From Candidatus Saccharimonadales bacterium (GTDB taxonomy: Bacteria > Patescibacteriota > Saccharimonadia > Saccharimonadales > JBGSXW01), in assembly GCA_041751215.1 (NCBI GenBank), contig JBGSXW010000003.1, positions 19,613-83,612 of the forward strand: a DNA stretch of 64,000 nucleotides. Direction: 5' to 3'. The position numbers were made by a program, and so were the translations under genes. How positions within the stretch are numbered: the first letter of the stretch is position 1; each line of letters opens with the position of its first letter. The notes under the pieces were generated by a model. That model was given only the letters and a program-made list of their open reading frames with translations. It had not been told where the DNA came from and ran no database searches. This document shows positions 2,967 through 19,200 of this stretch, one piece after another.

Positions 2967-5738
2967 ATGGCACAAACAACAGCACTCGGCATACGCCGGC
3001 ACTTTACCAAACCAGGAGTTCAAGCTTACGACATGTTGTCGTGGGTCAAACGCGACTCCATAATCACCAATCCAATGACGGGTAAAAACGTCTTTGAGCA
3101 ACTTGGTGTTGAGTTTCCAGACGACTGGTCACTTAACTCTATTAACATTGTGGCCCAGAAGTACTTTACCGGTACCCCAGGCACTAAGGGTCGAGAAGCT
3201 TCGCTTAAGACTTTAATCGATCGAGTGGCCGACACTATCACTCGTCATGGCTTAAAGGAAGGCTACTTCGTTGATGACGAAGAGGCCGAAACCTTTAACG
3301 CCGAACTAAAATACATACTTGCTACTCAACGTGCCGCCTTTAACTCTCCCGTTTGGTTCAATATTGGTGCTCACGAGCGCTCACAGCAGGCTAGCGCCTG
3401 TTTTATCTTGGCAGTTGATGATGACATGCGCTCAATCCTTAAATGGTACGAGGAAGAGGGAATGATCTTTAAGGGTGGTTCTGGTTCTGGAATCAACCTC
3501 AGTACGCTTAGATCATCACACGAATCTCTTGGCAAAAGCGCTGGAACGGCCTCTGGCCCACTATCGTTTATGCGCGGCGCCGACTCATCGGCTGGAGCAA
3601 TTAAGAGCGGTGGTAAAACTCGCCGAGCCGCCAAGATGGTCATTCTTAACTCCGACCACCCAGACATCGAAGAATTTATCTGGTGCAAAGCCATCGAAGA
3701 GCGTAAAGCTCGAGTTCTACAAACCGCTGGCTACGACATGGACCTTGATGGCAAGGACTCCTTCTCGGTTCAGTACCAAAATGCTAACAACTCAGTGCGC
3801 GTTAACGATGAGTTTATGAAAGCGGTCGAGGAAGATCGAGATTACGATCTTAAAGCCGTTAAAGACGGACGCAAGATTAAGAGCATCTCAGCCAAAGATA
3901 TCTTTAGGCAGGTCGCCGAAGCCGCCTGGGAGTGCGCTGATCCTGGAATGCAGTTTGATACTACAATTAACAAATGGCACACCACGCCCAACGCTGGTCG
4001 CATTAACGGTTCTAACCCTTGCAGCGAGTACATGCACCTGGACAACTCAGCCTGTAACTTAGCTTCGCTTAACTTACTCAAGTTTAGCGACGAAGAAGGC
4101 ACCTTTGATGTCGAAAGCTTTAAGCACACTACCGAGATCATGTTTACAGCTCAAGAAATCTTGGTCGGTTACTCGGTTTATCCAACTGAGCGCATCACCA
4201 AAAACGCTAAGAAATACCGTGAGCTAGGAATTGGCTACGCTAACTTAGGCGCGCTGTTAATGGCTAAGGGTTTACCTTACGACTCCGATGAAGGACGCGC
4301 TTTAGCTGCTACGATTACCGCCATGCTAACTGGTCACTCTTACGCCACTAGCGCCAAGCTAGCTCGCCGCGTCGGTCCGTTTGCCGGCTACCACAAAGAC
4401 CGCGACAACATGATCAACGTCCTTAAGATGCACCGCAACGAAGTTAAGAACATCGACGCTTCATTAGTTCCTGAAGAAATGCTCAGCGCAGCTGCTAGCT
4501 TCTGGGACGAAGCAGTTGAACAGGGTCAGCAGTACGGTGTGCGCAACTCACAAGCCAGCGTCTTGGCGCCTACTGGCACCATTGGCCTGATGATGGACTG
4601 TGACACCACTGGTATCGAGCCAGATCTTGGCTTGGCAAAGACCAAGAAACTGGTCGGCGGCGGAACAATGACCATTGTTAACCAGACCGTTCCTCGAGCC
4701 TTGCGGGCTCTTGGCTACAGCCAGCATCAGATTAACGACATTGTTGAATACATCGACGTCGAAAAGACCATCACCGGCGCACCGCACCTAAAAGAAGAGC
4801 ATCGACCGGTCTTTGCTTGCTCAATGGGCGACAATTCGATTCACTACATGGGTCACGTTAAGATGATGGCTGCTGTCCAGCCATTTATCTCCGGTGCTAT
4901 CTCTAAGACCGTTAACATGCCCGAAGAAGCAACTGTTGAAGACATCGAACAGCTTCACCTCGAAGCCTGGAAGATGGGTCTTAAGGCCGTTGCTATCTAC
5001 CGCGACAACTGTAAGGTTGGTCAACCACTATCGATGACCAAAAAGGCCGGGGCAGAGGACAAACCAGCCGAAGTTGTTGCAGCCGCAGCAGCAGTTGCCG
5101 CTCCAACCACTGCCGGCATCAGGCGCGAACTGCCAAAAGCTCGATCGGGTAAGACCTATGAATTTACCGTCGCTGACGTAAAAGGCTACTTCACAGTAGG
5201 CGAATACGAAGACGGAACTCCTGGCGAACTATTTATGCGAGTTTCTAAGCAGGGATCAACTATGGCCGGGATCATGGATGCGCTAGCTATCTCAGTTAGT
5301 CATGGTTTGCAGCACGGTGTGCCGCTTAGGACTTACGTCAAGGCGCTTACCAACATGAACTTTGCTCCCTCGGGCATGACCGATGACACCGAGATTCGAA
5401 CGGCTTCGTCACTAGTAGACTACGTGTTTAAGAAGCTCGCCCACGAGTATCTACCGTTTGAGGATCGACTAGAACTAGGCCTAGCCTCGCTAGAAGACAT
5501 GCCTGTAGAGCAGCAGTCGTTGCCAGTGGCCGAAGCTGCACCCAAAGAAGCAGTAGCAGCAGTAGCGCCGGAAAAGCCATCCGCAGCAAAGCCAGTTCAA
5601 GCCGAGGAAAAGCCAACAGCTAGCGGCAAGGTGAGTTCTGAAACTGCACCACTGTGCTCTAACTGCGGTAATCTGACGCAGCGAGCGGGATCGTGTTATG
5701 TTTGCACTTCCTGTGGCACCACCAGCGGCTGCTCCTAG
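2967..5738 (+). CDS. nrdJ: Class II (adenosylcobalamin-dependent) ribonucleotide reductase NrdJ
   Basis: 923 aa. GSNPCSEYMHLDNSACNLASLNL is the active-site Cys/Glu region. Also FMRGADSSAGAIKSGGKTRRAAKM. C-terminal Cys4 ribbon CSNCG..CYVCTSCG. Two Ala/Pro/Glu-rich linkers. Confidence 0.93.
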   Translation: MAQTTALGIRRHFTKPGVQAYDMLSWVKRDSIITNPMTGKNVFEQLGVEFPDDWSLNSINIVAQKYFTGTPGTKGREASLKTLIDRVADTITRHGLKEGYFVDDEEAETFNAELKYILATQRAAFNSPVWFNIGAHERSQQASACFILAVDDDMRSILKWYEEEGMIFKGGSGSGINLSTLRSSHESLGKSAGTASGPLSFMRGADSSAGAIKSGGKTRRAAKMVILNSDHPDIEEFIWCKAIEERKARVLQTAGYDMDLDGKDSFSVQYQNANNSVRVNDEFMKAVEEDRDYDLKAVKDGRKIKSISAKDIFRQVAEAAWECADPGMQFDTTINKWHTTPNAGRINGSNPCSEYMHLDNSACNLASLNLLKFSDEEGTFDVESFKHTTEIMFTAQEILVGYSVYPTERITKNAKKYRELGIGYANLGALLMAKGLPYDSDEGRALAATITAMLTGHSYATSAKLARRVGPFAGYHKDRDNMINVLKMHRNEVKNIDASLVPEEMLSAAASFWDEAVEQGQQYGVRNSQASVLAPTGTIGLMMDCDTTGIEPDLGLAKTKKLVGGGTMTIVNQTVPRALRALGYSQHQINDIVEYIDVEKTITGAPHLKEEHRPVFACSMGDNSIHYMGHVKMMAAVQPFISGAISKTVNMPEEATVEDIEQLHLEAWKMGLKAVAIYRDNCKVGQPLSMTKKAGAEDKPAEVVAAAAAVAAPTTAGIRRELPKARSGKTYEFTVADVKGYFTVGEYEDGTPGELFMRVSKQGSTMAGIMDALAISVSHGLQHGVPLRTYVKALTNMNFAPSGMTDDTEIRTASSLVDYVFKKLAHEYLPFEDRLELGLASLEDMPVEQQSLPVAEAAPKEAVAAVAPEKPSAAKPVQAEEKPTASGKVSSETAPLCSNCGNLTQRAGSCYVCTSCGTTSGCS

Positions 5739-5749
5739 AGCACTGCGCC

Positions 5750-5798
5750 GCCTAAAGCCTGCTGTCCGGCAGAGCCGGCCACACTGCTTTAGGCTTTT
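5750..5798 (+). terminator. Candidate intrinsic terminator of nrdJ
   Basis: GCCTAAAGC ... GCTTTAGGC forms a 9-bp stem enclosing an inner CCGG-CAGAG-CCGG hairpin, followed by TTTT. Confidence 0.4.
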
Positions 5799-5896
5799 GG
5801 CGCATTTCGGCGTCAGCGCCTCCGCCACTCCTTCCACCGTACGCTAAGTACGCCTTCGTCCGTTGCTCGGCGCTTCCTTGAACTGCATCCAAACGC
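5766..5896 (-). repeat. GC-rich ~130-nt repeat element, intergenic copy (inverted relative to the ileS copy)
   Basis: The reverse complement of 5818-5868 aligns by hand to 8393-8442 with 39/51 identical columns. Flanking anchors are shared in the same order: CCGGCAG, TTCGGCG and GCATCC. Confidence 0.55.
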
Positions 5897-5902
5897 AGCG
5901 GT

Positions 5903-6610
5903 CTAGGTTGCCAGACCCGAATTAGCACGAACTTTGTATACCAGATGAAGGTATGAATTTCTTAACGGTTTTACATGTGCAAGTTCGAGCATCGTAAGCT
6001 CCTTAAGTTCGGATATCTTAGTTAAGGATGGGCCGTCTATTAAGCTGGGCGTATCTTCACCACCGACCAATAACGGCGCAATCACAATGGAGACTTCGTC
6101 AATTAACTTATCTCTCGTCAACACAGCATTAAGTGTGCCGCCGGACTGAATGGTCAGCTTCCTGACATTAAAGTCTGACCAGAGTTGGCTAAATAGTCCC
6201 TCAAAGTTTATGCGCAGATCAAAATGTATAACCGATAAGTTTTCGTGCTCGATCTTCGTGGCTGGATGATCGTTCTTGGTCGTTACTAGTATTAAACCAG
6301 CGGTTTTCTCTAACAAATGTTCTACGCCTGATTTTGTTAGGTGGGGTTTACTATCAATGAGCACGAAAGTTACAGGTATTTTCTCCTGGAACATGACGCC
6401 CTCGTTTGCGCCCATTTTGGCAAAAACCTTTCCTGAGTTTAAATTGTGCAAGTCGGTTTGTTGCTCTAGCTCATGGAACTGTTTCTTCCCTTGCTTTAAA
6501 TATTCAATGTTTGCAAAGTCTGAGTCAAAATCTAGGACATCTGTGCTGCCTGTCGAAATCTTGCCATCAACTGATATAAGCATAAATAGTGTAGTGTATG
6601 GTCGGTTCAT
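5903..6610 (-). CDS. RibD C-terminal domain / dihydrofolate-reductase-like family protein
   Basis: LFMLISVDGKISTG.. and ..LTIQSGGTLNAVLTRDKLIDEVSIVIAPLLVGG.. are typical of the RibD_C/DHFR-like reductase fold. Confidence 0.7.
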   Translation of the reverse strand: MNRPYTTLFMLISVDGKISTGSTDVLDFDSDFANIEYLKQGKKQFHELEQQTDLHNLNSGKVFAKMGANEGVMFQEKIPVTFVLIDSKPHLTKSGVEHLLEKTAGLILVTTKNDHPATKIEHENLSVIHFDLRINFEGLFSQLWSDFNVRKLTIQSGGTLNAVLTRDKLIDEVSIVIAPLLVGGEDTPSLIDGPSLTKISELKELTMLELAHVKPLRNSYLHLVYKVRANSGLAT

Positions 6611-6616
6611 GCAAAG

Positions 6617-6625
6617 AGTATATCA
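6617..6625 (-). promoter_or_regulatory. Extended -10 box, 6 nt from the start codon (leaderless-type)
   Basis: The minus strand reads TGATATACT, then 6 nt, then the ATG of the 5903..6610 gene. Confidence 0.4.
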
Positions 6626-6639
6626 GCACAAGATGCTCG

Positions 6640-6648
6640 TGCTAAAAT
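6640..6648 (+). promoter_or_regulatory. Extended -10 box, 6 nt from the start codon (leaderless-type)
   Basis: TGCTAAAAT, then AGGGGC, then ATG at 6655. Confidence 0.4.
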
Positions 6649-6654
6649 AGGGGC

Positions 6655-6930
6655 ATGAAAGCCAAGATTCTTTATCACCCAGAAAGTGATCATGCGCGGA
6701 TGGTTACTGATTACGCCAGAGACTTTGAGCGGCAGGTTGGGCGGCCTTTAGAGTTAATAAGCCTAGAAACGCCTGCTGGTAGTGATCTGGCGCAGCTCCA
6801 CGACGTGACGCAGTATCCGGCTATTTTAGCGACGGATGACGAAGGCAAGTTGCTTCAAATGTGGCAGGGCGAGAAGTTTCCCATGATTCGAGAAGTAGGC
6901 TACTACCAATCTGGCCACTCGCGGCCATAG
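6655..6930 (+). CDS. Hypothetical small protein (91 aa)
   Basis: Clean ORF with a promoter-like motif. No family recognised. Size and alternating pattern are loosely thioredoxin-fold-like, but there is no CxxC. Confidence 0.5.
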   Translation: MKAKILYHPESDHARMVTDYARDFERQVGRPLELISLETPAGSDLAQLHDVTQYPAILATDDEGKLLQMWQGEKFPMIREVGYYQSGHSRP

Positions 6931-6934
6931 CGGC

Positions 6935-6945
6935 TGATATATACT
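6935..6945 (+). promoter_or_regulatory. Extended -10 region, 6 nt from the start codon (leaderless-type)
   Basis: TGATATATACT, then GTCTCC, then ATG at 6952. Confidence 0.4.
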
Positions 6946-6951
6946 GTCTCC

Positions 6952-7608
6952 ATGGCTTACAGCAAAGAGGCGTATGAATTACTAAAAGAGATCGAGTTCT
7001 TATATGAGCGATATTCTCATGAGCTTAGAGCCACGACCCAGCCCTTCTTGTTAAAAAGAGTGCAAAGTAATGTCAAAAACTATAAGTATCACCCCGAGGA
7101 CCTAGTAGTTCGGGAAACTTTACTCGAGCACATCGGCTCACTACCAATGACGGCGGTTGCGTTCTACCCTTTTATCAACGATAAGGATGTTGATCTGGGC
7201 AAAGCGCTCTCAATGTTGGCCATTCACGACATCGGTGAGCTAATTACAGGTGACGAAATCACATTTACCAAGAAGCAAGACAGTAAAAAAGCAGAATATG
7301 AGGCAGCGCTAAAGTTATTGCACTCGTCTTACCACGAACTGTATGAAGAAACAGAGAAGCGCACGTCGAAATCCGCACTGTTCGCTAAAGCAATCGATAA
7401 AATCACACCTGACATAATCGATTATCTTACTCCAGCCGATATAACCATTTGGCGCTACGAGCACTTCGTGAATATGGCAGGGGATAAGGTTGTCGATATG
7501 ATCGTGGAGCACAAGCGTCCGTACATGCTATGGAATCCTTTCATGACAGAATTTCATAAACTACTCATGGATGAACTAGAGAAGAAACTAGCTGCAGCAA
7601 TAAAGTAA
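6952..7608 (+). CDS. HD-domain phosphohydrolase family protein
   Basis: LLEHIGSL.. (His) and LSMLAIHDIGELITGD (HD dyad), with a later FAKAIDKITPD. This is the HD/YfbR-like pattern. Confidence 0.7.
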   Translation: MAYSKEAYELLKEIEFLYERYSHELRATTQPFLLKRVQSNVKNYKYHPEDLVVRETLLEHIGSLPMTAVAFYPFINDKDVDLGKALSMLAIHDIGELITGDEITFTKKQDSKKAEYEAALKLLHSSYHELYEETEKRTSKSALFAKAIDKITPDIIDYLTPADITIWRYEHFVNMAGDKVVDMIVEHKRPYMLWNPFMTEFHKLLMDELEKKLAAAIK

Positions 7609-7690
7609 TGACAGATGGTTGTGTTGCGCTCGCGACCCTACCTCAGTTATAGTTAGTTGAAACTCCGTCAAAGTGCGGATCTGGAGACCT

Positions 7691-10600
7691 ATGTCAGACA
7701 CCAAACCAGCCAAAGACCGTTCAGTATTTGCTCAACGCGAAGAGCAAATACTTGATGTGTGGAACAAGGAAAGCACCTTTGCCGAGTCGCTCAAACAGCG
7801 CGAAGGCAAGGACGTCTTTACCTTTTACGATGGCCCGCCGTTTGCCAACGGCCTGCCGCATTTTGGTCACACCCTGGTAACCAGCATTAAAGACTCAGTC
7901 GGCCGCTATAAAACCATGCGCGGTTATTATGTCGAGCGCAAAAACGGCTGGGACTGTCACGGCTTACCAGTAGAGTTTGCGATCGAAAAACAGTTTGGCG
8001 TTAGTGGTAAAAAACAAATTCTTGATCTTGGACTAGATAAGTTTAACGCTGCCTGCCGCGAGTCGGTGTTTATGTACAAGTCAGAGTGGGAGCAGTTTTT
8101 TGCCCGCGCCGGACGCTGGACCGACACCGAGAACGCTTACGCCACCATTGATACCAACTACACCGAAAGTGTTTGGTGGACGCTGTCACAAATCCATAAA
8201 AAGAACCTACTTTACCGTGGTTTTAAGAGCATGCCGTACTGCCCACGCTGCGAAACCCCACTTAGCAACTTTGAGGTAAACGAAGGCTACCGAGATAACG
8301 TTCCCGACCCTAGTTTGTTCATGAAATTTAAGCTTATCGAAGATCAGGAAGTAGCAAATACATCTGAAGCGAGTGGGATGCAAGGCGCTGGCGAGCAGCG
8401 GACGGAAGCGTACACAACGTCCGATGAAGGAGCAGCGGAGCCAGCAACGCAGCAGCGCGCCGAAGGCAGCAGAGTCAGCGTCTCTGGCGCTGAGCAGGCT
8501 GCCGGTTCAGTGTATTTGCTGGGCTGGACTACAACCCCTTGGAGCCTCCCAGGCAACGCCGCCGTTGCTGTGAATCCGCAGGCAATTTACGTCTACGCCC
8601 AAGTTGGCGACGATGTTCTTATTATGGCCAAGGAGTTAGTCGAAAAAGTCCTCAAAAACGAAGAATCCTATCATATACAGCAAGAGGTTAAGGGGAGCGA
8701 GCTAGTTGGTAAATCGTACGAGCCGTTGTTTGATCTGGGTGAAAAGACTTCAAACAACGACAAAATGTACAAAGTTTGGCCCGCAAACTTCGTTAGCGTA
8801 GAGGACGGCACCGGTGTTTTGCACGTGGCGCCAGCCTTTGGAGAAGACGACCTGAGCCTCGGCCAACAAGAAGGGTTAGATGTTCTGACAACCGTTGATC
8901 CGAGCGGTCATATCGACGCCGGAACCGGCCTAGAGGGGATTGAAGGACTTTTCTTCAAAGACGCCGATCGCCCAATCATCAAGCACCTGACCGAAAAAGG
9001 CGCTGTGTTTGTAGCCCAAACTTATTCGCACACCTATCCGTTTTGTTACCGCTGCGACAGTCCGCTGCTTTATTATGCGATATCGACTTGGTTCATTCGG
9101 GTTTCAGAGATCAAGGACCAACTGCTTAAAACAGCCGAAGACATTGAATGGACCCCAGCTCACATCAAGCAAGGGCGTTTTGGCAAGTGGCTAGAGGGCG
9201 CGCGCGACTGGGCGATTAGCCGCAATCGTTATTGGGGAGCACCAATGCCGATCTGGCAAAATGTCGACGACCCAGAGGATTACATCGTCGTTGGCAGTAT
9301 TGAGGAGCTCAAAGACCTCGCCGGAGCCGACACTAAGCTCGATGATCTTCACCGTCCGTTTATCGATGAAGTAACGTTTGAAAAGGACGGCAAAACCTAT
9401 AAGCGCATCGAAGAAGTGCTCGATTGCTGGTTTGAGTCGGGTTCGATGCCGGTTGCTCAGCGCCATTATCCGTTCGAGAACAAAGACGACTTTGAAAAGT
9501 TCTTCCCGGCTGATTACATCGGTGAGGGGCTAGATCAAACTCGTCTGTGGTTTTACGTGCAGCACGTAATTGCGACCATTCTGTTCGATAAACCAGCTTA
9601 CAGGCACGTGATTGTAAACGGCATGATCAACGCCGCCGACGGAGCAAAACTCAGCAAACGCCTCAAGAACTATCCACCAGTTGAGGATGTGTTCGCCCAG
9701 GAAGGTGCCGATACTCTGCGACTTTATTTGTTATCTAACTATCAAGCGACCGCCAATGCTGGCTACATGCGTTTTGATCGCGGTGCCATGAAAGATCTTA
9801 ACCGAAACATTATTGGAACACTTGAGAATTCGCATAAGTTCTTCTCGATGTACGCCCTAATCGATAAGTGGCAGCCTAAAGCACCCGGCCAGGAGCCAAA
9901 AGTCAGCCACGTATTAGATAAATGGCTGATTGCTCGACTCAACGAGACCATTAAGACTACCACCGAAGCCGCCGATGACTTTGAGATTGCTCGAGCCATC
10001 AATCCAGTCTTTGAGCTAATCGAGGATATGTCCAATTGGTATATTCGTCGCTCGCGCCGACGGTTCTGGAAGAGCGAGGACGACACCGATAAGCTTGAAG
10101 CCTATGAAACGCTTTGGTACTCGCTTTACCGGCTAAGTCAGCTACTTGCTCCTTGGGCGCCGTTTGCCACCGATCATTTGTGGAGAGAGTTAGTTGCTGG
10201 CACCGATCTGCCTAAATCTGTGCATCTAAGTGATTGGCCAGAAGGCGGGGCAGTCGATGAAGCTTTGATCGAAGAAATGAAAACTACTCGCGCAGTGATT
10301 AACGATGTTTTGCGCCAACGAGCCCAGGTCGGAATTAAAGTTCGCCAACCGTTACTAGAGGTTAAGTTAGGCAAGCAGCACAGTGTCAGCCAAGAGCTAA
10401 TAGACATCATCGCCGAGGAAGCCAACATTAAAAAAGTAACAATTGATAGCAGTGCAGCCGATGATAACGTTGAATTGAATACAACAATAACCGACGAGCT
10501 TAAACTCGAGGGAGTCATGCGCGACGTTGTAAGATTTGCTCAAGCTGCACGCAAACACGCCGGACTAGATGTTGAGAATCGCATCCTGCTGAGTCTTGCT

Positions 10601-10762
10601 ACCGAAGATAAAATGCTCTCCGATGCTATAAGCAAGTTCAGCGACACCATAAAGCAAGAGACGCTTGCTGTTGAACTATCAACAACGGAATCGTACGAAC
10701 ATTCTGAAGAGGTTTCACTGTCCGGAGCTAAACTGACGATCTCGCTTCAAAAGAAGTCGTGA
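7691..10762 (+). CDS. ileS: Isoleucyl-tRNA synthetase
   Basis: Track ORF trimmed to ATG 7691, after GGAG. PHFGH (HIGH motif), WTTTPWSLPGN (editing domain) and KLSKR (KMSKS motif). TGA stop overlaps the next gene (GTGA). Confidence 0.95.
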   Translation: MSDTKPAKDRSVFAQREEQILDVWNKESTFAESLKQREGKDVFTFYDGPPFANGLPHFGHTLVTSIKDSVGRYKTMRGYYVERKNGWDCHGLPVEFAIEKQFGVSGKKQILDLGLDKFNAACRESVFMYKSEWEQFFARAGRWTDTENAYATIDTNYTESVWWTLSQIHKKNLLYRGFKSMPYCPRCETPLSNFEVNEGYRDNVPDPSLFMKFKLIEDQEVANTSEASGMQGAGEQRTEAYTTSDEGAAEPATQQRAEGSRVSVSGAEQAAGSVYLLGWTTTPWSLPGNAAVAVNPQAIYVYAQVGDDVLIMAKELVEKVLKNEESYHIQQEVKGSELVGKSYEPLFDLGEKTSNNDKMYKVWPANFVSVEDGTGVLHVAPAFGEDDLSLGQQEGLDVLTTVDPSGHIDAGTGLEGIEGLFFKDADRPIIKHLTEKGAVFVAQTYSHTYPFCYRCDSPLLYYAISTWFIRVSEIKDQLLKTAEDIEWTPAHIKQGRFGKWLEGARDWAISRNRYWGAPMPIWQNVDDPEDYIVVGSIEELKDLAGADTKLDDLHRPFIDEVTFEKDGKTYKRIEEVLDCWFESGSMPVAQRHYPFENKDDFEKFFPADYIGEGLDQTRLWFYVQHVIATILFDKPAYRHVIVNGMINAADGAKLSKRLKNYPPVEDVFAQEGADTLRLYLLSNYQATANAGYMRFDRGAMKDLNRNIIGTLENSHKFFSMYALIDKWQPKAPGQEPKVSHVLDKWLIARLNETIKTTTEAADDFEIARAINPVFELIEDMSNWYIRRSRRRFWKSEDDTDKLEAYETLWYSLYRLSQLLAPWAPFATDHLWRELVAGTDLPKSVHLSDWPEGGAVDEALIEEMKTTRAVINDVLRQRAQVGIKVRQPLLEVKLGKQHSVSQELIDIIAEEANIKKVTIDSSAADDNVELNTTITDELKLEGVMRDVVRFAQAARKHAGLDVENRILLSLATEDKMLSDAISKFSDTIKQETLAVELSTTESYEHSEEVSLSGAKLTISLQKKS
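8369..8505 (+). repeat. GC-rich ~137-nt repeat element embedded in frame in ileS
   Basis: 60-65% GC by hand count for 8401-8520. Homologous to 5766-5896 in inverse orientation. Creates shadow ORFs on both strands. Encodes SEASGMQGAGEQRTEAYTTSDEGAAEPATQQRAEGSRVSVSGAEQAAG. Confidence 0.55.
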
Positions 10763-13236: not shown

Positions 13237-16200
13237 ATGGACGAAAACAGTACAAACAACTGGAATCAAAACCCTTCAAACACCGCTGTTGCGGACCCTC
13301 CAGTTAGTAGCAACACGACTCCGAATTACGAGGAGCCTGTAGGAGTAAGCAGTCCATCTGGCAGTGTTTCTGCCGTTGAAGCACCAACGCAAGGGCTCTC
13401 GCTTGATAGCGATCAAACAGTTTCTAGCCAGCCGAACATACCGAGCACAGAACCAACTGTATCTTCTAATGTCTCTGTTGCTGACACAGTTAACGCTCAA
13501 AGTTCAAGCGCAGCTGTTCCGACATCGCCACTGCCGCCAACTAATGCCAGCAGCAACCGAGACCGCCGCCCAACCAAGCTGATAATTGCAATCGGGGTAA
13601 CAATCGCCATGCTCGCAATTGGGGGTGGTTTTGTTTCTAGGCTACTCAACACTTCCGGAGATCAAACAGCGGTAACTCCTGCCCAATTTGACGACCAGGA
13701 TGTTGACCTGCCAGGGGCAGTGATTGACGACAGTTTGATTGCTATAGATGGCGATCGCAGCCTGGTGATTAACGGTGATGTGCTGTCTCAGGGTAGTTTT
13801 AGATTTTACAACGAAGATCAATACGGACAGATTGCTGCCGGGGACTTAACGGGCAACCAGGTGTATACTTTGCCAGATGAAAGCGGAGTACTTTGTCTCA
13901 ACAGCAATAACTGCGGGTTTGCATTATCTGATGAGGTAATTCAGGCGGGCGATCAGCTAATCATCAACAACTTAACAGGCGCGATAAGCATTCAAGGGAC
14001 GGCCAACCAGATAAACGTTGGGGCTGCTGGTAACGTTGTAACGATATCAACACCACAGAGTATTGGATTCGCTAGTGCCCCAAGGTTTAGAACCATTTCG
14101 CTGACTAATGTTGGTCGTCAGAACGGTAACATAATCTGTGACATTTCAAACAACTGTGGCTTTGCTGGCGGCGCAGGTGCGTTTGTTCAGGGTGGCAACA
14201 GCTTTGGGGCAGTAGCCGTTCTAGGGACAAATGACAACTTTGGCCTGAGCTTTGAGACCAATGGCAATAGCTGGGTGAACATAGACACAGCAGGAGAGCT
14301 CGAGGTTGTGTCGGGCAACATTAGTACTCCGGGCATATTATCGATGAGTGCCGGCGGGCTCTTAACACCTATATTTGTCGCTGCAAATGCTGGTGGCCCT
14401 GTCGCGGTATTCAACGCTAACACCACTCTAATCCGCAGTGTTACAAATGCCGAAACTGCTTTTCTCGTTCAAGGTTCTGCAGATGATAGCGTCCTAACTG
14501 TTAGCACCATTTCGAAGGAAGTCACGATCGGCGCATCCAGCATAGGAATTCCTGCGTTATTAGAGGTAAACAATACCATTGATACCCCCGCCTTTAATTG
14601 TTCGTTTGGTTGTTGGGGTATTTATAACAATGTTGCTATAGATGATTCGGACTTTCTCGGAGTATTCGGTGGCTTACGAACAAACTATAGGACAGAAGCA
14701 TCGCCATTCACCCTGAGCACTGGATACGGAGTATACATTGGTGGCGCTGTAGCTGGCGCCGGCTCTACCATCACGTCTAACTATGGACTATTCGTGCAAT
14801 CGCAGACTGCCGGAACCGATGACTATGGTATAGCAGTTGGCGTAGCTGACACGCAGACTCTTTGGATTGGCAGTACAGCCAACTCAACTACTGCTAATGC
14901 CGGCATTGCCTTTGGTTCAGGAAGAGACACAAATTTGTACCGCTCAGCAGCCAACGTTTTACAAACAGATGACTCATTGCGAGTGGAAGACAGGTTACAG
15001 GTTGGCGGTTCGGCTGCGGGCACAATTGATCAGTGCATAGGAGTCGTGCTTTTTACTTGCGACGTGACGGTAGACGTATATAACGCGTCAACCTCTACAA
15101 CAACACCAACCTACGGCATCTATAACCAGGCGGCAATTACTCAAAACACAACAAATACTGTCACGAATAGCGCCTCCTACAATCAACTTTCCCTCGGTGG
15201 GACTGGGAGTTACGCGCTGCCTAACATAGGTGTTTCTGGGGTGGTTGTCGTGGGCACGGCGGATGCAACGTTTGCCACTGGTTTGAGCGGGCAAGTCATC
15301 AGCAATTCGATTCTAGGATCGGTAGGAGAAGCTGCAGGGGTCGTTGGTAGCGTGGGTTTCCTTGGAAATTCAGCGGCTGTCGATAGCGCGTATAGCTTTT
15401 ACGCTTCGCAAAACTCCGGAAACATACAGGATAACTACGGATTGTATATTAATGATCAATCCGGAGTTGGTAGTAATAGCAACTACAACATTTACTCCGA
15501 GGGGGCAGGCCACAACTTGTTTCAGGGTCACACGGCTATTGGAGCTGATGCGGCCGTAGATCAAGCTGGTTGGACCTATCTTTTCCTAGGCGGCGGCACA
15601 GCAACTACCGCGACCAGCCAGAATGTGCTTACTGTTAACGAAGAGTTCAATGATCTAACCGTAGCAGATATTTCTAACGGCATTGTAAGCCACGTTAGCG
15701 TTAGTCAGGCAGTTGATGGTGGCGGAATTAGTGGCAGCACCAATCAGGTGGTAGTGGCAGATACCAACACCGGTTTGGTTGATGGTGTATTTGGCCAGAA
15801 CAACACCATACTTCTTGAGGGCACGGGTGCAATTGGTGGGGTGCAGGGAGTTACAAACTATATAGATGCTCAGCTTCTTCAAAATAACGTTGGCTTTGTG
15901 TACGGTGAGACCACCCTTCTTGTAGGGCCAAGTGATGGAAACGTGTCTGATATGGTCGGGAGCTTTACTGGTGTCAGCTCTGACGCACAACTTGGATTTA
16001 CTGTCGGCACGATGATCGGGCACCATGTTGGTGTTGGCGGCCCTACACTTGGTACGCTTGAAACAGGCATAGGAGTATTCGTTGAGGGAGTGAGCGGAAA
16101 CTCAAATGAGAACTACGGAATTGCTGTCGGCAACGTTACTGGGGGTGCAGAAAACTACGGTATTGCAATCGTCGCAACCGACACTCAAACCTTATGGATT

Positions 16201-19200
16201 GGCACTGGCGATGACGGCACAGACGCAGCTAGTGGTATCGGCTTCGGTTTGTCGCGCGACACCAATCTTTACCGAGGTGCAGCAGACGTCTTACAGACAG
16301 ATGACAGCCTAGTTGTTGGTGGCCGCGGAGCAATTGGTTCGACGGCATCCTTAGGGCAGGCGACGACGCTGCGCCTAGCAGAAGCCCACACCGATGAAGG
16401 ATTTGTCTATGGCATTGAAAATTACCTACAAGCAACGGCAGCCACCCAAGCGCTTAGTACTGCCGTTGGCAACCATAATGGCGTCCTTGTCGATGGCTCG
16501 AATGACGTAGGCACGATAGCCGGTAGTTTTAACGAGGTGATTTATCAAGGAACTGGCAATGTACAGACCATAATCGCGGGATTCTCAAGTGCTGCCAATT
16601 ACGGAAATACCGATAGCCTCTACGGTATTAGTGCTGGGGCTTGGAACGATGGCGCAGCCATTGTAGGAACTATGCAAGGCGCATACATAGAAGCTACAAA
16701 TCAAGGCTTAGCAACCAGTGTGGACGGCATTAACATTGCGTTGGTAAATGATGGTGGAGTTGCCAATACAGCAACGGCTATTAACATCGAATCCATAGAA
16801 AACACTGGCGGCATTGATGATGCCTACGGTATTTATATAGGCGACCAATCTGGAGTGGGTAGTGTCAGCAGTTACAACATTTACTCTGAAGGAGATGGCT
16901 ATAACTTGTTCCAAGGACATAGTGCCTTTGGTGCAAATGCCACGGTCCAAGCTGGCGCAGTGCTGAATGTTAATGAGGAATATTCCGGAGCAGGTGATGG
17001 CATTAGAGTTGAAACGTCAAAAACTGGGGCGGGCGGTAGCACGTACTCAATCAATAACTTTGTAGAACTTGTAGCTGGAGGCACGGCCACTAATGTCGGG
17101 GCCATCAGTAACAACGTCAACATTGATAATGGTTCTACGGCTAGCTCTACCTATGGAGGTATATTCCAGACCCAAGTTCATGGAACGGCAACATCGGTTA
17201 GCGGTTTGTACGTTGACCTAGGTGTCTACAGCACAGCTAATGTGGGCACTGCTCGAGGACTATGGATATACGATTCTTTTGTAGAAGGAGGAGCAACGTT
17301 CACAGATCAGTACGGCATACAAATTGGCACCCAAACTGGAGCTACTAACAACTACGGAATAGCCGTAGGTGAAGCCGATACGCAAACACTTTGGATTGCC
17401 AATACTACAGCGGACCCAACTACCGCCAATGCCGGCATTGCCTTTGGCTCATCTAGGGACACAAACCTGTACCGCTCAGCGGCGGATACGCTTAGAACTG
17501 ACGATACGCTAATTGTGGGCGGCACAATTTCTGTTCCTCATTCTGGCAGTAACAGTGAACGTTTTGGTGCTAGCACCAGCGCTACTGGTAATAACACCGT
17601 GGCTGTCGGTAACGGTGCAACTGCTAACTTTACTAACTCGACGGTAATTGGCCAAGGGGCAAGCGCTACGGGTATCGATTCTGTGGCATTAGGACAAGGT
17701 GCAACTGTCGATGGGTTGGCCTTAGCGCTAGGTAGAAGTACTACATCAACCGCCACTGGCTCGATCGCTATCGGCTACTCTGCGGACGCCACGGCTAACC
17801 AGTCAATCGCAATTGGGCGCGAAGCGCTTGCAGATGAAATTTCGTCAATTGCCATTGGCCGCGAAGCTACCACAACGGCAACCAACCAACTGGTCATCGG
17901 TTCATCGTCGTACGGCATCACATCGGCTTACCTTGGTAACGGGGTCACAGCCGCCTCCCCAGCCGGATTCGTGTTGAATGCCACTGGCGGGTCGGGAACT
18001 GATATTGCCGGCGCTAATCTAACGTTGGCTGGTGGTCGGGGAACCGGTACTGGTGTCGGCGGGAATATTATCTTTCAGTATGCAGCAGCGGGTGGTTCAG
18101 GGACGTCATTAAATGCACTAGCTACTGCTTGTAGCATCAGTGGCACTAACGGTAGCTTGAGTTGTCCGGGTGCGGGCGCTAACAGTGAGAGATTTGGTGC
18201 CAACACAGTAGCCGCAAACGCTAACTCGCTGGCAATTGGCGCATCAGCTTCGGTAACCGGCGATGGAGGAACTGCTATAGGAAGAAACGCATCAGTAACA
18301 GGGAGTGGTTCAAGTGTTGCTATCGGATATAACGTTACGGCCACCTCAACAACAGTTGGAATCGGTAGTAGTGCCAATAGTAACAGTGTCGTGGTTGGAG
18401 TGGGCGCTACTGATGCAGCTGGCGGAGGAACGGTCATCGTTGGACGCAGCGCGACGTCAGGTGCAGACGGCATCGCGCTAGGCCGATCGGCCAATGCGAG
18501 CAACCGATCTATTGCAATTGGCTATGGCGCAACAACAAGCACGCAAAACCAAATTGTTGTTGGTAGTTCGACTACAGCTTCTTCATACATAGACGAAGGC
18601 TACTTCGGTAGCGGTGTGACGTCTGCAACTCCAACATCGTTCTTGCTTAGTGCTACTGGCGGATCGGGCACAGATATTGCTGGCGCCAACTTCACCTTAT
18701 CTGGTGGCCGGGGTACAGGTTCTGCAAATGGAGGGTCAATACTGTTCCAAACTACCGCTCCAGGTGCAAGTGGCGGAGGCTTGCGAACGAGAGCAACAGT
18801 ATTAGGGCTTGCTGGTGGCACCGGCGCTGCGACCTTCCAAAACCTCAGCGACTCTGCCACAGGCTTCCAGGTGCTTGATGCTGATGGGGGAATATCAGTG
18901 CTTAGCGTCAATACAATAGATGAACATGTTGGCGTGGGCACTAACTCTGCTGCCTATAAGCTTGATGTGAATGCCGATGCGCCAGGTTCGTACGTCGCGA
19001 ACTTCTTTAACGACGGCAACGACCAAGCGCGAAATGGCCTTAGAGTGCAAGCTGGAGCAGACGACGGTTCGGGTACGACTTACTACTTAGACGCTTACGA
19101 CGGTGACGGTGACCAAGTTGGTTACCTAGCAAATGTCGGTGGAACCTTCGGGATTACTGATGTATCTGATATTAGAACCAAGACTAACGTAGAGGACACA

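Follow-up and report, generated by a model that had tools for sequence, protein, structure and literature searches.

Known palindromic elements and the present repeat family

The closest described systems are the Rickettsia palindromic elements RPE-1 to RPE-10 (Ogata et al., Science 2000; Genome Res 2002; summarised in PMC10969869), and a review of 2024 still singles out Rickettsia for an unusually high frequency (PMC10969869). MITEs within genes are also known, including ERIC/IRU, QMITE1 of Coxiella, Nezha and other cyanobacterial MITEs (PMC10969869). In classic MITEs, which are deletion derivatives of DDE insertion sequences, the terminal inverted repeats are common to the whole family, target-site duplications are present and a related IS exists. 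REPs are by definition confined to extragenic DNA; they are short palindromes with a conserved 5' tetranucleotide, and REP/REPIN systems have tens to hundreds of copies and a cognate RAYT gene. GC-rich mobile hairpins of organelles include the yeast mitochondrial GC clusters, the double-hairpin elements of Allomyces and byp of Magnusiomyces.

An in-frame insertion in the isoleucyl-tRNA synthetase gene (ileS) of a Saccharimonadales bacterium and the repeat family to which it belongs were compared with these systems. The window, i.e. the whole stretch of DNA analysed, is 64,000 nt long. Like the RPEs, the family is composed of geneless palindromic repeats of ~100-180 bp which reside in spacers and also, in frame, in numerous unrelated housekeeping genes of reduced-genome bacteria; in both, one hydrophilic reading frame is used, the peptide lies in loops and the mobilising enzyme is unknown. 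The family differs from the RPEs in being found in Saccharibacteria/Patescibacteria and not in Rickettsia, and there is no sequence relationship between the two. It also conserves an internal core with invariant loops, has a copy-specific terminal stem which can include host codons, and shows copies in several phyla (judged by record labels and GC) as well as conservation of copies at the same site. The RPE criteria of a stable repeated hairpin of ~100-150 bp and in-frame presence in many genes are met. Membership by sequence is not, as six insert peptides found no match in Pfam or NCBIfam at E<=10. NCBIfam presumably has an RPE1 model. The element acts like an RPE and is not an RPE member.

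With MITEs the family shares small size, lack of autonomy, hairpin formation, multiple copies and possible in-frame fusions. The classic-MITE criteria of shared terminal inverted repeats and a fixed-length target-site duplication are not met, and no parent IS was found near the copies. REP/REPIN elements and IS200/IS605-derived palindromes are likewise strand-specific imperfect hairpins, often placed directly after stops between convergent genes; both are not known to produce target-site duplications, and mobilisation in trans via single-stranded DNA is plausible. In contrast to REPs, the present element has no GTAG or REP motif, its arms carry a direct repeat (GAGCAGCGGA) and not only inverted ones, and it seems to be present in few copies per genome. 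Neither a RAYT nor a TnpA gene was found near the copies. With copies in genes, a single 105-nt core hairpin and two copies in 64 kb, the REP/REPIN criteria are not met. The organellar hairpins are also GC-rich, mobile and present inside protein genes of a compact genome, but they are much shorter, and byp is skipped by the ribosome. For the present family read-through translation is simplest, because every intragenic copy is frame-preserving and stop-free.

The insertion in ileS

The exact IleRS protein of the window is on record with the Pfam domains tRNA-synt_1, Anticodon_1 and DUF5915. A protein search gave 8000 homologues at E<=1e-50, and the solved structures 1ILE and 8C8U were matched. 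The identity test for IleRS was met, with class I catalytic, CP1 editing (WTTTPW motif) and anticodon-binding domains. The features of the gene are as follows.

7691..10762, + strand: host gene ileS, isoleucyl-tRNA synthetase, 1023 aa counted from ATG
8348..8509, + strand: in-frame insertion of 54 codons (162 bases), E220-S273 = EVANTSEASGMQGAGEQRTEAYTTSDEGAAEPATQQRAEGSRVSVSGAEQAAGS, lacking in 115/120 homologues
8344-8556, - strand, and 8373-8573, + strand: shadow ORFs over the insert

The initial annotation had described a segment of this IleRS as overlong, and alignment with close and distant relatives, nearly all of which are without it, confirmed this. The comparison set was formed by the 120 best homologues (58-65% identity), and the frequency of inserts is established only for these. 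The spacing from PDPSLF.KFKL to TTTPWSLPGN is 85 residues in the window IleRS and exactly 31 in the 115 homologues that do not have the extra codons. The loop of 1ILE at this position has ~5 residues (218-222), and the inserted segment is without counterpart in 1ILE or 8C8U. The GC content of 8366-8510 is 66%, compared with 49% in the remainder of ileS; the earlier counts of 39/60 (8401-8460) and 36/60 (8461-8520) were exact, and the shadow ORFs reported on both strands were found. The segment had also been read as low-complexity, which did not hold, since it is instead a conserved structured hairpin with strong covariation. In the AlphaFold2 model, residues 218-270 show pLDDT of 24-33 and no secondary structure, with confident beta-strands (200-215 and 274-280) on either side. 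The insert is predicted to extend the tip of a beta-hairpin as a disordered loop, in agreement with the surface-loop tolerance that had been inferred. The translated insert includes the peptide stretch EVANTSEASGMQGAGEQR...AEQAAGSVYLLGW.

IleRS proteins bearing an insert do not form one clade. Seven internal insertions of at least 12 residues were found among the 120 proteins. Five of the seven are at the site of the window insert, in five proteins of at least three lineages. A protein profile made of the insert plus short flanks (A5) returned only short insert-free IleRS fragments.

Architecture of the ileS copy

The DNA of the insert and the adjoining host codons are composed of an outer stem (P0), a core hairpin (P1 to P3) and a second hairpin (P4).

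8353..8368, + strand: 5' arm of outer stem P0, AGCAAATACATCTGAA, pairs with 8506-8520 in minimum-free-energy folds
8369..8465, + strand: conserved core hairpin with P1, CAAGG loop, P2, CGAGCAGCGGA // GAAGGAGCAGCGGAG region and P3 apical hairpin
8466..8502, + strand: second hairpin P4, CAGCG-TCTCTGG-CGCTG, followed by the GCAGGCTGC tail (from folds)
8506..8520, + strand: 3' arm of outer stem P0, TTCAGTGTATTTGCT, overlaps host codons S-V-Y-L-L

P0 of this copy has an exact complementary run of 10 nt. The Y-L-L of its 3' arm belongs to a conserved strand, xAYLLGWTTTPW, which is found in insert-free homologues too. The covariance model of the family, R1, matches 8365-8474 with 82.7 bits (E=5e-23). 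P3 is slightly degraded, having GTCCG where GTACG is expected. The P4 module, with compensatory changes in its stem, is also present in loci L002 and L003, in the intergenic copy described below and in most other in-frame copies. The insert had been said to contain an imperfect direct repeat; its first unit, GGCGCTGGCGAGCAG, is situated at 8384 as described, and the second unit at 8486, not 8485. The repeat is a component of helices P2 and P4 and no separate feature. The IleRS inserts of loci L004 and L005, at the same site as the window insert, are hairpins of other sequence which R1 does not recognise. By eye, the L004 insert retains P4-like motifs; it was excluded from family membership.

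The second copy in the nrdJ spacer

The second copy of the window occupies the entire spacer between two convergent genes.

2967..5738, + strand: nrdJ-type ribonucleotide reductase (from the ORF), stop TAG 5736-5738 inside the P0 3' arm of the intergenic copy
5734..5907, - strand: intergenic element copy between the convergent nrdJ and RibD_C-domain genes
5751..5793, - strand: P4 hairpin of the intergenic copy, CCTAAAGC...GCTTTAGG
5903..6610, - strand: RibD_C-domain gene (PF01872)

Homology of the insert to an inverted spacer element downstream of nrdJ was stated in the initial annotation, and a non-significant similarity would have counted against the mobile-element reading. The similarity is highly significant. 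Within the window, blastn aligned the two copies over 140 nt with 67% identity, inverted (E=1.4e-12), and the local alignment score was 47 against 12.8 +/- 2.4 in 2000 shuffles (z=14.5). The hand alignment of 8393-8442 to the reverse complement of 5818-5868 was reproduced with 39/51 identical columns. R1, which was built from relatives, matches the spacer copy at 5786-5896(-) with 89.6 bits. Its scan of the 64 kb gave these two copies only, the next-best match having 10 bits.

The spacer copy begins a few bases from the stop codon of the RibD_C gene and shares its orientation, and its P0 arms overlap the stop codons of both flanking genes. The minus strand folds with -73 kcal/mol (z=-2.6) and the plus strand with -59.9 kcal/mol. 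The nrdJ orthologue in L004/L005 has the Pfam domains Ribonuc_red_2_N, Ribonuc_red_lgC and TSCPD. A role of the spacer copy as an intrinsic terminator was considered, the hairpin and a TTTT run being suggestive by eye, and was rejected as the terminator scan calls none on either strand.

The repeat family and its secondary structure

The family was found with a degenerate 43-nt pattern, giving 20 loci in GTDB genomes and 30 in JGI metagenomes. The matches represent ~46 true copies, 41 of them unique, and there are weaker model hits in addition. Most copies come from MAGs of Saccharibacteria/Saccharimonadales. Re-scanning of the same loci with R1 revealed four confident copies in L056, three in 8 kb of L012 and two each in L028, L033 and L046. 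Because further copies were found at already-known loci, the family is a dispersed repeat. The element possesses no protein-coding capacity.

The core hairpin is ~105 nt long, with helices P1, P2 and P3 separated by conserved purine-rich internal loops. Compensatory double changes were observed in 17 of the 28 pairs of the consensus structure, and the pair counts were 997 Watson-Crick, 72 G·U and 12 A·C. The copies form two size classes of ~117-136 nt and 157-181 nt, the longer of which has the P4 hairpin. Most copies are closed by a near-perfect P0, differing in sequence from copy to copy. The core is conserved across contigs of 42-73% GC with several phylum labels.

The Rfam 15 covariance models, among them those of group I/II introns, SRP RNA, 6S RNA and IS605-associated RNAs, gave no match for the window copies at E<=10 and none for eight further loci at E<=5; the search was functional, since tRNAs were recovered in the same loci. 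A resemblance to SRP RNA or group II domain V, suggested by short motif similarities, was not supported by Rfam and was rejected. The element had no match in the viral contigs and the phage and plasmid collections searched, and full-text literature searches found no description of it. The family is apparently undescribed.

When the ORFs up to 5 kb away from copies were clustered all against all, only syntenic housekeeping genes recurred and no mobilising gene, and Pfam analysis of the neighbours of the copy-rich L012 and L056 revealed no transposase. One LAGLIDADG ORF was present among these neighbours. Inspection of the flanks of ~50 copies showed no consistent target-site duplication, GACC/GACC being seen in GluRS copies only. 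No presence/absence polymorphism of an R1-family copy was found between close strains; the sole close pair, L004/L057, concerns a different 75-nt hairpin which is not of the R1 family.

In-frame copies and their host proteins

Seventeen intragenic copies were identified by the DNA search, and all 17 are in sense orientation and stop-free and maintain the open reading frame of the host. No gene is split by any copy. The hosts are IleRS, GluRS, CysRS, TsaD, DnaG, Der, YchF, UDG and a CrtI-like oxidoreductase; Pfam confirmed TsaD, YchF, DnaG, UDG, Der, GluRS, CysRS and an FAD amine oxidase. A search with a profile built from the translated element matched 52 proteins among 1.84 billion representatives and added further hosts, including RluD-type, MsrA, FolD, an MGMT domain and Dus with two copies. 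In-frame copies are present in ~19 unrelated host protein families. Most of the 52 matches are 48-100 aa long and look like ORFs called over copies, as judged by length with contexts unchecked. The insert-only peptide profile (A2) gave no match at E<=10 in a 5.8-billion-protein index, for which the profile is too short.

The typical hydrophilic frame is ..LDAVQGxGEQRTEPYxKYGEGAAQxxTPQSA.., and a different frame is used over the first half of the element in the TsaD copies of L034 and L038. Each of the six frames is free of stops in many copies (13-30 of 41), but what is encoded antisense is hydrophobic and Cys-rich, so that selection at the peptide level can explain the bias for sense orientation. 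The encoded peptide is poorly conserved, whereas the nucleic-acid structure covaries.

Origin of the insertion

We consider it likely that the ileS insert is a selfish palindromic element like those of Rickettsia, spread via a strand-specific single-stranded intermediate and tolerated in frame; the mobility, the single-stranded intermediate and the mere tolerance of the loop are inferred. According to this proposal, 8348-8509 would be a palindromic repeat of ~120-180 nt, non-coding and non-autonomous, which was copied into ileS in frame and depends for its mobility on an unidentified enzyme acting in trans. Copies would persist only where the harm is small, that is in intergenic spacers, often directly after a stop codon, and in protein loops or linkers if their length is a multiple of three and the hydrophilic frame is read. 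Translation of the ileS copy would add a disordered loop of 54 residues to the tip of the beta-hairpin leading into the CP1 editing domain. The analysis establishes the homology, the multi-copy family, the covarying structure, the ORF-preserving sense copies, the near-absence in IleRS relatives and the predicted disordered loop. The earlier idea of a small GC-rich repeat that landed in coding DNA and is tolerated as a loop is supported, with the movement itself inferred and not shown. Its description as MITE- or REP-like is borne out by a multi-copy repeat found both between genes and in frame, with the refinement that consistent duplications of the target site, as in a classic cut-and-paste MITE, are missing.

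Some observations speak against a selfish element. There is no transposase or mobilising gene near any copy and no consistent target-site duplication, no strain polymorphism was found, and the 64 kb contain only two copies. Conservation at the same site along with compensatory changes is not predicted by neutral decay of a dead insertion, and the conservation of the core over such a range of GC and phylum labels is unusual for a MITE.

Unlikely, though a serious contender, is the explanation that the element is or became a functional structured RNA module kept by host selection, a mobile origin not being excluded. As such it could tune translation or mRNA stability through a structure located at domain boundaries, or give rise to a small RNA derived from transcripts, for example of the tRNA operon in L033. 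Third-codon-position identity between same-site copies is 0.74-0.87 in the core against 0.40-0.41 elsewhere in the host genes, with no broad recombination patch in the flanks of the pairs, and double compensatory changes separate the pairs L002/L003 (4), L026/L041 (5) and L048/L034 (9). Separate insertions of several family members at the same site would look like conservation in place, and covariation can stem from selection among element lineages for transposition competence. G·U outnumbers A·C six to one, hence the fold is kept on the sense strand, and the sequences of the internal loops are conserved despite very different contig GC. The majority of intergenic copies share the orientation of a neighbouring gene, and two lie interspersed among tRNA genes of their own strand (tRNA-Leu and two tRNA-Met), but 4-5 are antisense to both neighbours. 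Moreover, 115/120 IleRS manage without the insert, the host genes and sites are heterogeneous, the ileS copy of the window has the degraded P3 and no known RNA family was matched.

The chance is slim that the element is not passive, being either a guide-directed homing element without a gene of its own or a host-selected mRNA structure. Its conserved core could then act as RNA or as single-stranded DNA, or its variable 5' arm could pair with the flank on the 3' side. This reading would explain the outer stems which include host codons and change together with them, the recurrent hairpins at the IleRS site and the same-site nucleotide conservation. Slimmer still is the chance of guide-directed homing taken by itself, in which the 5' arm pairs with the target immediately 3' to the site of insertion and the two form P0 afterwards. 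Repeated insertion at one place in IleRS would follow from a guide matched to conserved codons. Exact complementary runs of at least 8 were found in 12/39 cognate flank pairs and in 0.95% of non-cognate pairs, in a test confined to the adjacent 16 nt; duplex folding of long flanks separated cognate and non-cognate pairs poorly. In the window, L002 (14/14 pairs) and L003, the IleRS 3' arm consists of the host codons V-Y/F-L-L(-A-W), of which the 5' arm within the insert is the reverse complement, and likewise the 3' arm in MsrA is F-R-I-L-L. Between L002 and L003, two P0 positions changed on both arms, one of them with a Y-to-F change of the host. However, both arms seem to be inside the insert in GluRS, YchF site A and one TsaD copy (L048), and P0 can travel with the element, because the L012 paralogues and the L046 tandem copies, and only these, have a common P0. 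Quasipalindrome (hairpin-templated) mutation or snap-back synthesis could lengthen the stem into the flank with no need of targeting. The clustering of five of the seven large IleRS insertions at one site in at least three lineages favours a guide, but the differing sequences of L004 and L005 there indicate a permissive or fragile site instead. We know of no enzyme associated with such an element.

An old lineage-specific insertion domain of IleRS, with the spacer likeness due to chance or a stray ileS fragment, is very improbable: aminoacyl-tRNA synthetases often vary in loop length at this position, and P0024 and P0027, mutual nearest relatives, have a related insert, but the ileS/spacer similarity far exceeds chance, and the same core at dozens of intergenic sites and in frame in ~19 unrelated host families, covarying in structure with a poorly conserved peptide, refutes it.

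Removal of the segment as an intron, intein or translational bypass, or a template/variable repeat pair of a DGR, is scarcely credible: P0 brings the insert ends together, all genic copies are sense and the window has one intragenic and one intergenic copy, yet stop-free, in-frame copies in 17/17 cases would be unnecessary under excision or bypass, so that membership in these classes is not met (by sequence only, without expression data); the insert is far smaller than known inteins (~130 residues or more) and its ends, E220 and S273, are not the usual junction residues; Rfam has no group I or group II match; and the DGR pair was rejected as a reverse transcriptase is absent from the vicinity and, unlike DGR repeats, the core is common to many genomes and genes (the adenine-specific pattern was not checked).

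Significance of the family

Taken as a selfish palindromic element, the ileS insert represents a second in-frame palindromic family, unrelated to that of Rickettsia and in another reduced-genome lineage (Saccharibacteria). Its hosts span aminoacyl-tRNA synthetases, DnaG primase, TsaD, GTPases and repair enzymes. The covariance model accounts for odd low-complexity loops, GC spikes and shadow ORFs in genes of Patescibacteria and also flags spurious small ORFs, and the copies are insertion markers for strain typing. The core with its invariant internal loops and the outer stems which track the host provide handles for seeking the mobilising machinery. The family is an independent system for studying the movement of such elements, the tolerance of proteins for inserts or the use made of them, and it suggests that compact genomes repeatedly accommodate mobile hairpins through translation.

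An in-frame repeat element in ileS

The initial annotation had drawn attention to an unusually long segment in IleRS and to its similarity with an inverted intergenic copy. The window protein was aligned with its 120 best homologues (58-65% identical; the few named ones are Saccharimonadales or Patescibacteria). The spacing from PDPSLF.KFKL to TTTPWSLPGN is exactly 31 residues in 115 of the 120 and 85 in the window, and the 54 extra codons are absent in those 115. The GC content is 66% for 8366-8510 against 49% in the remainder of ileS. The earlier GC counts (39/60 and 36/60) were identical on recomputation, and the hand alignment with 39/51 identical columns was reproduced exactly. In blastn, 8381-8512 matched the reverse complement of 5741-5880 over 140 nt (67% identity, E=1.4e-12), and a shuffle test of the insert and the spacer gave z=14.5. 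The ileS insert is real and its similarity is beyond chance.

Features of the element copies in the window
7691-10762, forward strand: ileS, 1023 aa
8348-8509, forward strand: in-frame extra segment of ileS, 54 codons, from the IleRS alignment
5734-5747 and 5894-5907, reverse strand: outer stem of the intergenic copy, holding the stops of the two convergent genes

With the nrdJ TAG (5736-5738) and the stop of the RibD_C-domain gene (5903-5905, reverse strand) both lying in its outer stem, the intergenic copy fills the spacer exactly. No further blastn match to the ileS insert was found within the window. R1, a covariance model of the element core, scored the two copies at 82.7 and 89.6 bits, and with filters off found nothing else above 10 bits in the whole 64 kb.

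Diverged direct repeats (65-83% identity, 1.2-2.5 kb apart) lie at 14803-17483 within a 2192-aa ORF. It has faint YadA_head and clear Peptidase_S74 matches and resembles a large, repetitive protein of the surface or tail-fibre-like type.

The 53-58 inserted residues stand in for about 5 residues (218-222 of T. thermophilus IleRS, 1ILE; 212-216 of 8C8U), directly before the LLxWTTTPWT strand leading into the CP1 editing domain. The AlphaFold2 model of window IleRS (44 homologues, mean pLDDT 78) left residues 218-270 without secondary structure at pLDDT 24-33, between confident strands 200-215 and 274-280. This predicted disordered excursion at a beta-hairpin tip fits, without being a measurement, the tolerated surface loop proposed in the initial annotation, and supports it.

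Distribution of the element family

The initial annotation had proposed looking for further copies, and pattern and R1 searches found a dispersed family in GTDB and JGI loci. A degenerate pattern based on the best-conserved block, CAAGGNNNNGNCGAGCARCN{7,10}CGTACN{5,6}GTNCG, matched 20 loci among GTDB contigs (one genome per species) and 30 among JGI metagenomes. Six look like chance matches, and the others align over about 110 nt. R1, made from the pattern-found copies, revealed overlooked ones in the fetched loci (L numbers): three confident copies in 8 kb plus one marginal match in L012, four within about 2.6 kb in L056 (region 5671-9289), two in L028, two in L033, the tandem copies of L046, a weaker second copy in each of L007, L010, L027 and L054, and marginal matches in L014, L017 and L042. 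The L056 copies adjoin a LAGLIDADG endonuclease ORF (5671-6210) and a pentapeptide-repeat protein. No recurrent gene and no transposase was seen among the genes neighbouring the copies.

Selected copies in other loci
L022:6357-6457, sense: copy in the rpoB-rpoC spacer (genes identified by N-terminal sequences only) of a MAG labelled Deltaproteobacteria (unverified); locus GC 45%
L046:1104-1295: tandem copies with a common outer stem
L033:2398-3019, reverse strand: two R1 copies amid tRNA-Leu(CAA), tRNA-Met and tRNA-Met, all on the same strand and few bases apart

Transcription of these tRNAs would include the L033 copies, and tRNA processing could then free them as discrete RNAs. By unverified record titles, the hosts are mostly Saccharibacteria or Saccharimonadales MAGs, with a Magasanikbacteria MAG (one locus), a 'Verrucomicrobiia' MAG (two contigs), a 'Myxococcales' MAG (one contig) and a 'Deltaproteobacteria' MAG (one contig). 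A high-GC subfamily (L046, L030, L036, L037, L047, L015, L027) lies on contigs of 65-73% GC, above the 42-56% of loci labelled Saccharibacteria; the family may thus cross phyla, or these contigs may belong to a different host group. Phage and plasmid collections and viral contigs gave no match to the element, and full-text literature searches turned up no description of it.

Fold of the element

RNAalifold on 41 unique copies predicted one irregular hairpin of 28 pairs, 17 with compensatory double changes. Column pair 16-94 is GC in 26 copies, AU in 9, UA in 5 and CG in 1, with none broken; pair 25-83 is CG in 15, UA in 9, AU in 8 and GC in 5.

Parts of the core hairpin, from outside to inside
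P1, outermost core helix: typically TTGGATGCAg / aTGCGCCAA
Internal loop inside P1: invariant CAAGG facing YRACGCmGyA
P2: helix, covaries freely
Conserved region inside P2: CGAGCArCGGA facing GArGGAGyAGCGsAG; the GCAGC motifs pair with an A.A mismatch
P3, apical hairpin: CGTAC, loop of 5-6 nt, GTACG

Over all pairs, 997 are Watson-Crick, 72 G.U and only 12 A.C. Since A.C is G.U viewed on the opposite strand, this excess indicates that the fold is kept on one strand as single-stranded nucleic acid. For the intergenic window copy, too, the element strand is the one with the more stable fold (-73 kcal/mol, z=-2.6, vs -59.9 kcal/mol). In many copies a further hairpin, P4, is present; its stem shows compensatory changes and its tail, GCAGGCTG, is conserved. 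An outer stem of 8-23 pairs, P0, closes the whole element in nearly all copies, so that they fall into two classes by length (about 117-136 nt and 157-181 nt). The element matched no known RNA family, and no Rfam family matched any copy tested.

Copies inside genes

The DNA-level search, independent of reading frame, placed 17 copies within long ORFs. All 17 are in sense orientation and all 17 keep the ORF open.

Host genes of the intragenic copies (Pfam-confirmed where tested)
IleRS: window, L002, L003
GluRS: L007, L009
CysRS: L018
TsaD: L048/L053 and L034/L038/L043
DnaG primase: L026/L044, L041
Der/EngA: L014
YchF, two distinct sites: L054/L040 and L049
UDG-superfamily protein: L017/L035/L042
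CrtI-like FAD oxidoreductase: L039

The usual frame reads ..LDAVQGxGEQR(T/S)EPYxKYGEGAAQxxTPQSA.., and a single-base difference in loop length can put half of the element in another frame (L034, L039). When a profile of the usual peptide was searched against 1.84 billion representative proteins, 52 matched at E<=0.001 (P0132-P0183). Most are 48-100 aa and, judged by length with contexts unchecked, look like spurious ORFs called over copies. The long matches include an RluD-type pseudouridine synthase, an MGMT-type DNA-binding domain protein, MsrA, FolD, and a 295-aa dihydrouridine synthase (Dus, P0165) with two in-frame copies (at about residues 75-120 and 166-209). One further match, without any Pfam hit, is a C-terminal fragment that resembles the product of the putative RNA methyltransferase gene preceding the L010 copy. 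In pilin-like proteins, and in another protein assigned to TsaE on its motif alone, the match is in an N-terminal extension.

With ten host sites the chance of an all-sense outcome is about 0.001. Each of the six frames of the core is often open (13-30 of 41 copies). The exclusive sense orientation can be explained by selection on the peptide, as translation of any of the three antisense frames would give hydrophobic, Cys-rich products. No gene split by a copy occurs among the copies found; together with the open sense ORFs, this argues against excision or bypass.

Outer stem and host codons

The 16 nt preceding P1 were compared with the downstream flank for exact complementary runs. Runs of at least 8 occur in 12/39 cognate flank pairs vs 0.95% of non-cognate pairs, and runs of at least 7 in 21/39 vs 4.4%. 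The P0 sequence is copy-specific, and is common to paralogues in L012 and to the tandem copies in L046.

Outer stem of the ileS copy in the window
8353-8368, forward strand: 5' arm, reverse complement of the 3' arm, within the insert
8506-8520, forward strand: 3' arm, TTCAGTGTATTTGCT, coding S-V-Y-L-L

The Y-L-L of the 3' arm belongs to the strand conserved in insert-free IleRS homologues. In the IleRS copy of L002, P0 is a 14/14 match (AGCAAGTAGACGGC / GCCGTCTACTTGCT) extending imperfectly into L-A-W codons; that of L003 has 13 pairs, 2 of them G.U. As read from the sequences, both arms differ between L002 and L003 at two P0 positions, one with a host Y-to-F change. In MsrA (L058) the 3' arm consists of host codons F-R-I-L-L, and in GluRS, YchF site A and one TsaD copy both arms appear inside the insert. 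Candidate explanations for the host codons are snap-back synthesis during insertion, copying the neighbouring flank; later hairpin-templated (quasipalindrome) stem extension and correction, with the coding arm fixed by selection; and guide-like pairing that selects the target.

Conservation and recurrence at the same sites

Third-codon-position identity in the core of same-site pairs from different genomes is 0.87 (L002/L003), 0.76 (L007/L009) and 0.74 (L034/L038), against 0.40-0.41 elsewhere in the same genes. A sliding window showed no broad recombination patch: the peak does not extend beyond the element. Double compensatory changes number 4 in L002/L003, 1 in L007/L009, 3 in L034/L038, 5 in L026/L041 and 9 in L048/L034. 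The fold may be under selection in place, copies may be kept alike by homogenisation with one another, or separate insertions of distinct family members may have hit one site.

Internal insertions of at least 12 residues are only seven among 120 IleRS, five at the insert site and two smaller ones elsewhere. Besides the window, the site carries extra residues in P0024 (+61), P0027 (+53), P0017 (+25) and P0037 (+20). Over about 150 nt, both window copies can be aligned with the inserts in P0024 (L002) and P0027 (L003). These two proteins are mutual nearest relatives, and the window IleRS is near none of the four. The nearest relatives of P0017 (P0050, 89% identical) and P0037 (P0072, 84%) are without insert. 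Between the ileS loci L004 (P0017) and L057 (P0050) a clean 75-nt hairpin insert is present/absent in DNA flanks about 90% identical by eye.

Insert at the same ileS site in L004
L004:10631-10723: region with the 75-nt hairpin-forming insert

The L004 insert has GGCTCTGC and AGGCTGCTCC motifs in common with the P4 module, and L005 has a different, AT-richer 60-nt hairpin there. Both fold as hairpins (z=-2.9 and -3.3), and R1 recognised neither. Because the five carriers do not form one clade and the hairpins differ, the IleRS loop either gained palindromic DNA on several occasions or underwent many precise losses of it. A plain 'dead insertion' does not account for the same-site conservation, the host codons in P0 or this hot spot.

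Nature of the element

The mobile-repeat interpretation of the initial annotation is supported, with mobility and mechanism themselves inferred. The element is probably a selfish, non-autonomous palindromic repeat behaving like Rickettsia palindromic elements (RPE). Like RPE it is dispersed, hairpin-forming and also intergenic, and in a bacterium with a reduced genome it lies in frame in loops of housekeeping proteins that are unrelated to one another. It is not counted as a member of the RPE families, since six insert peptides matched no NCBIfam or Pfam model at E<=10. RPE were still treated as an extreme case in a 2024 review (PMC10969869). The element would be translated in one benign frame within such loops. 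It may move via a single-stranded intermediate, which the strand asymmetry and the absence of target-site duplications fit; the enzyme is not identified. A host-level RNA function, itself compatible with a mobile origin, is possible and considered unlikely. Guide-directed homing, in which P0 pairing would choose the target, is more doubtful still. The element does not qualify as a classic MITE on two defining features, as it lacks both family-wide terminal repeats and consistent target-site duplications.

If the short peptide matches are spurious, such annotation artefacts could be flagged by the covariance model. The ileS insert of the window is one instance of a wider, apparently undescribed family, which makes it more interesting than a lone odd loop.
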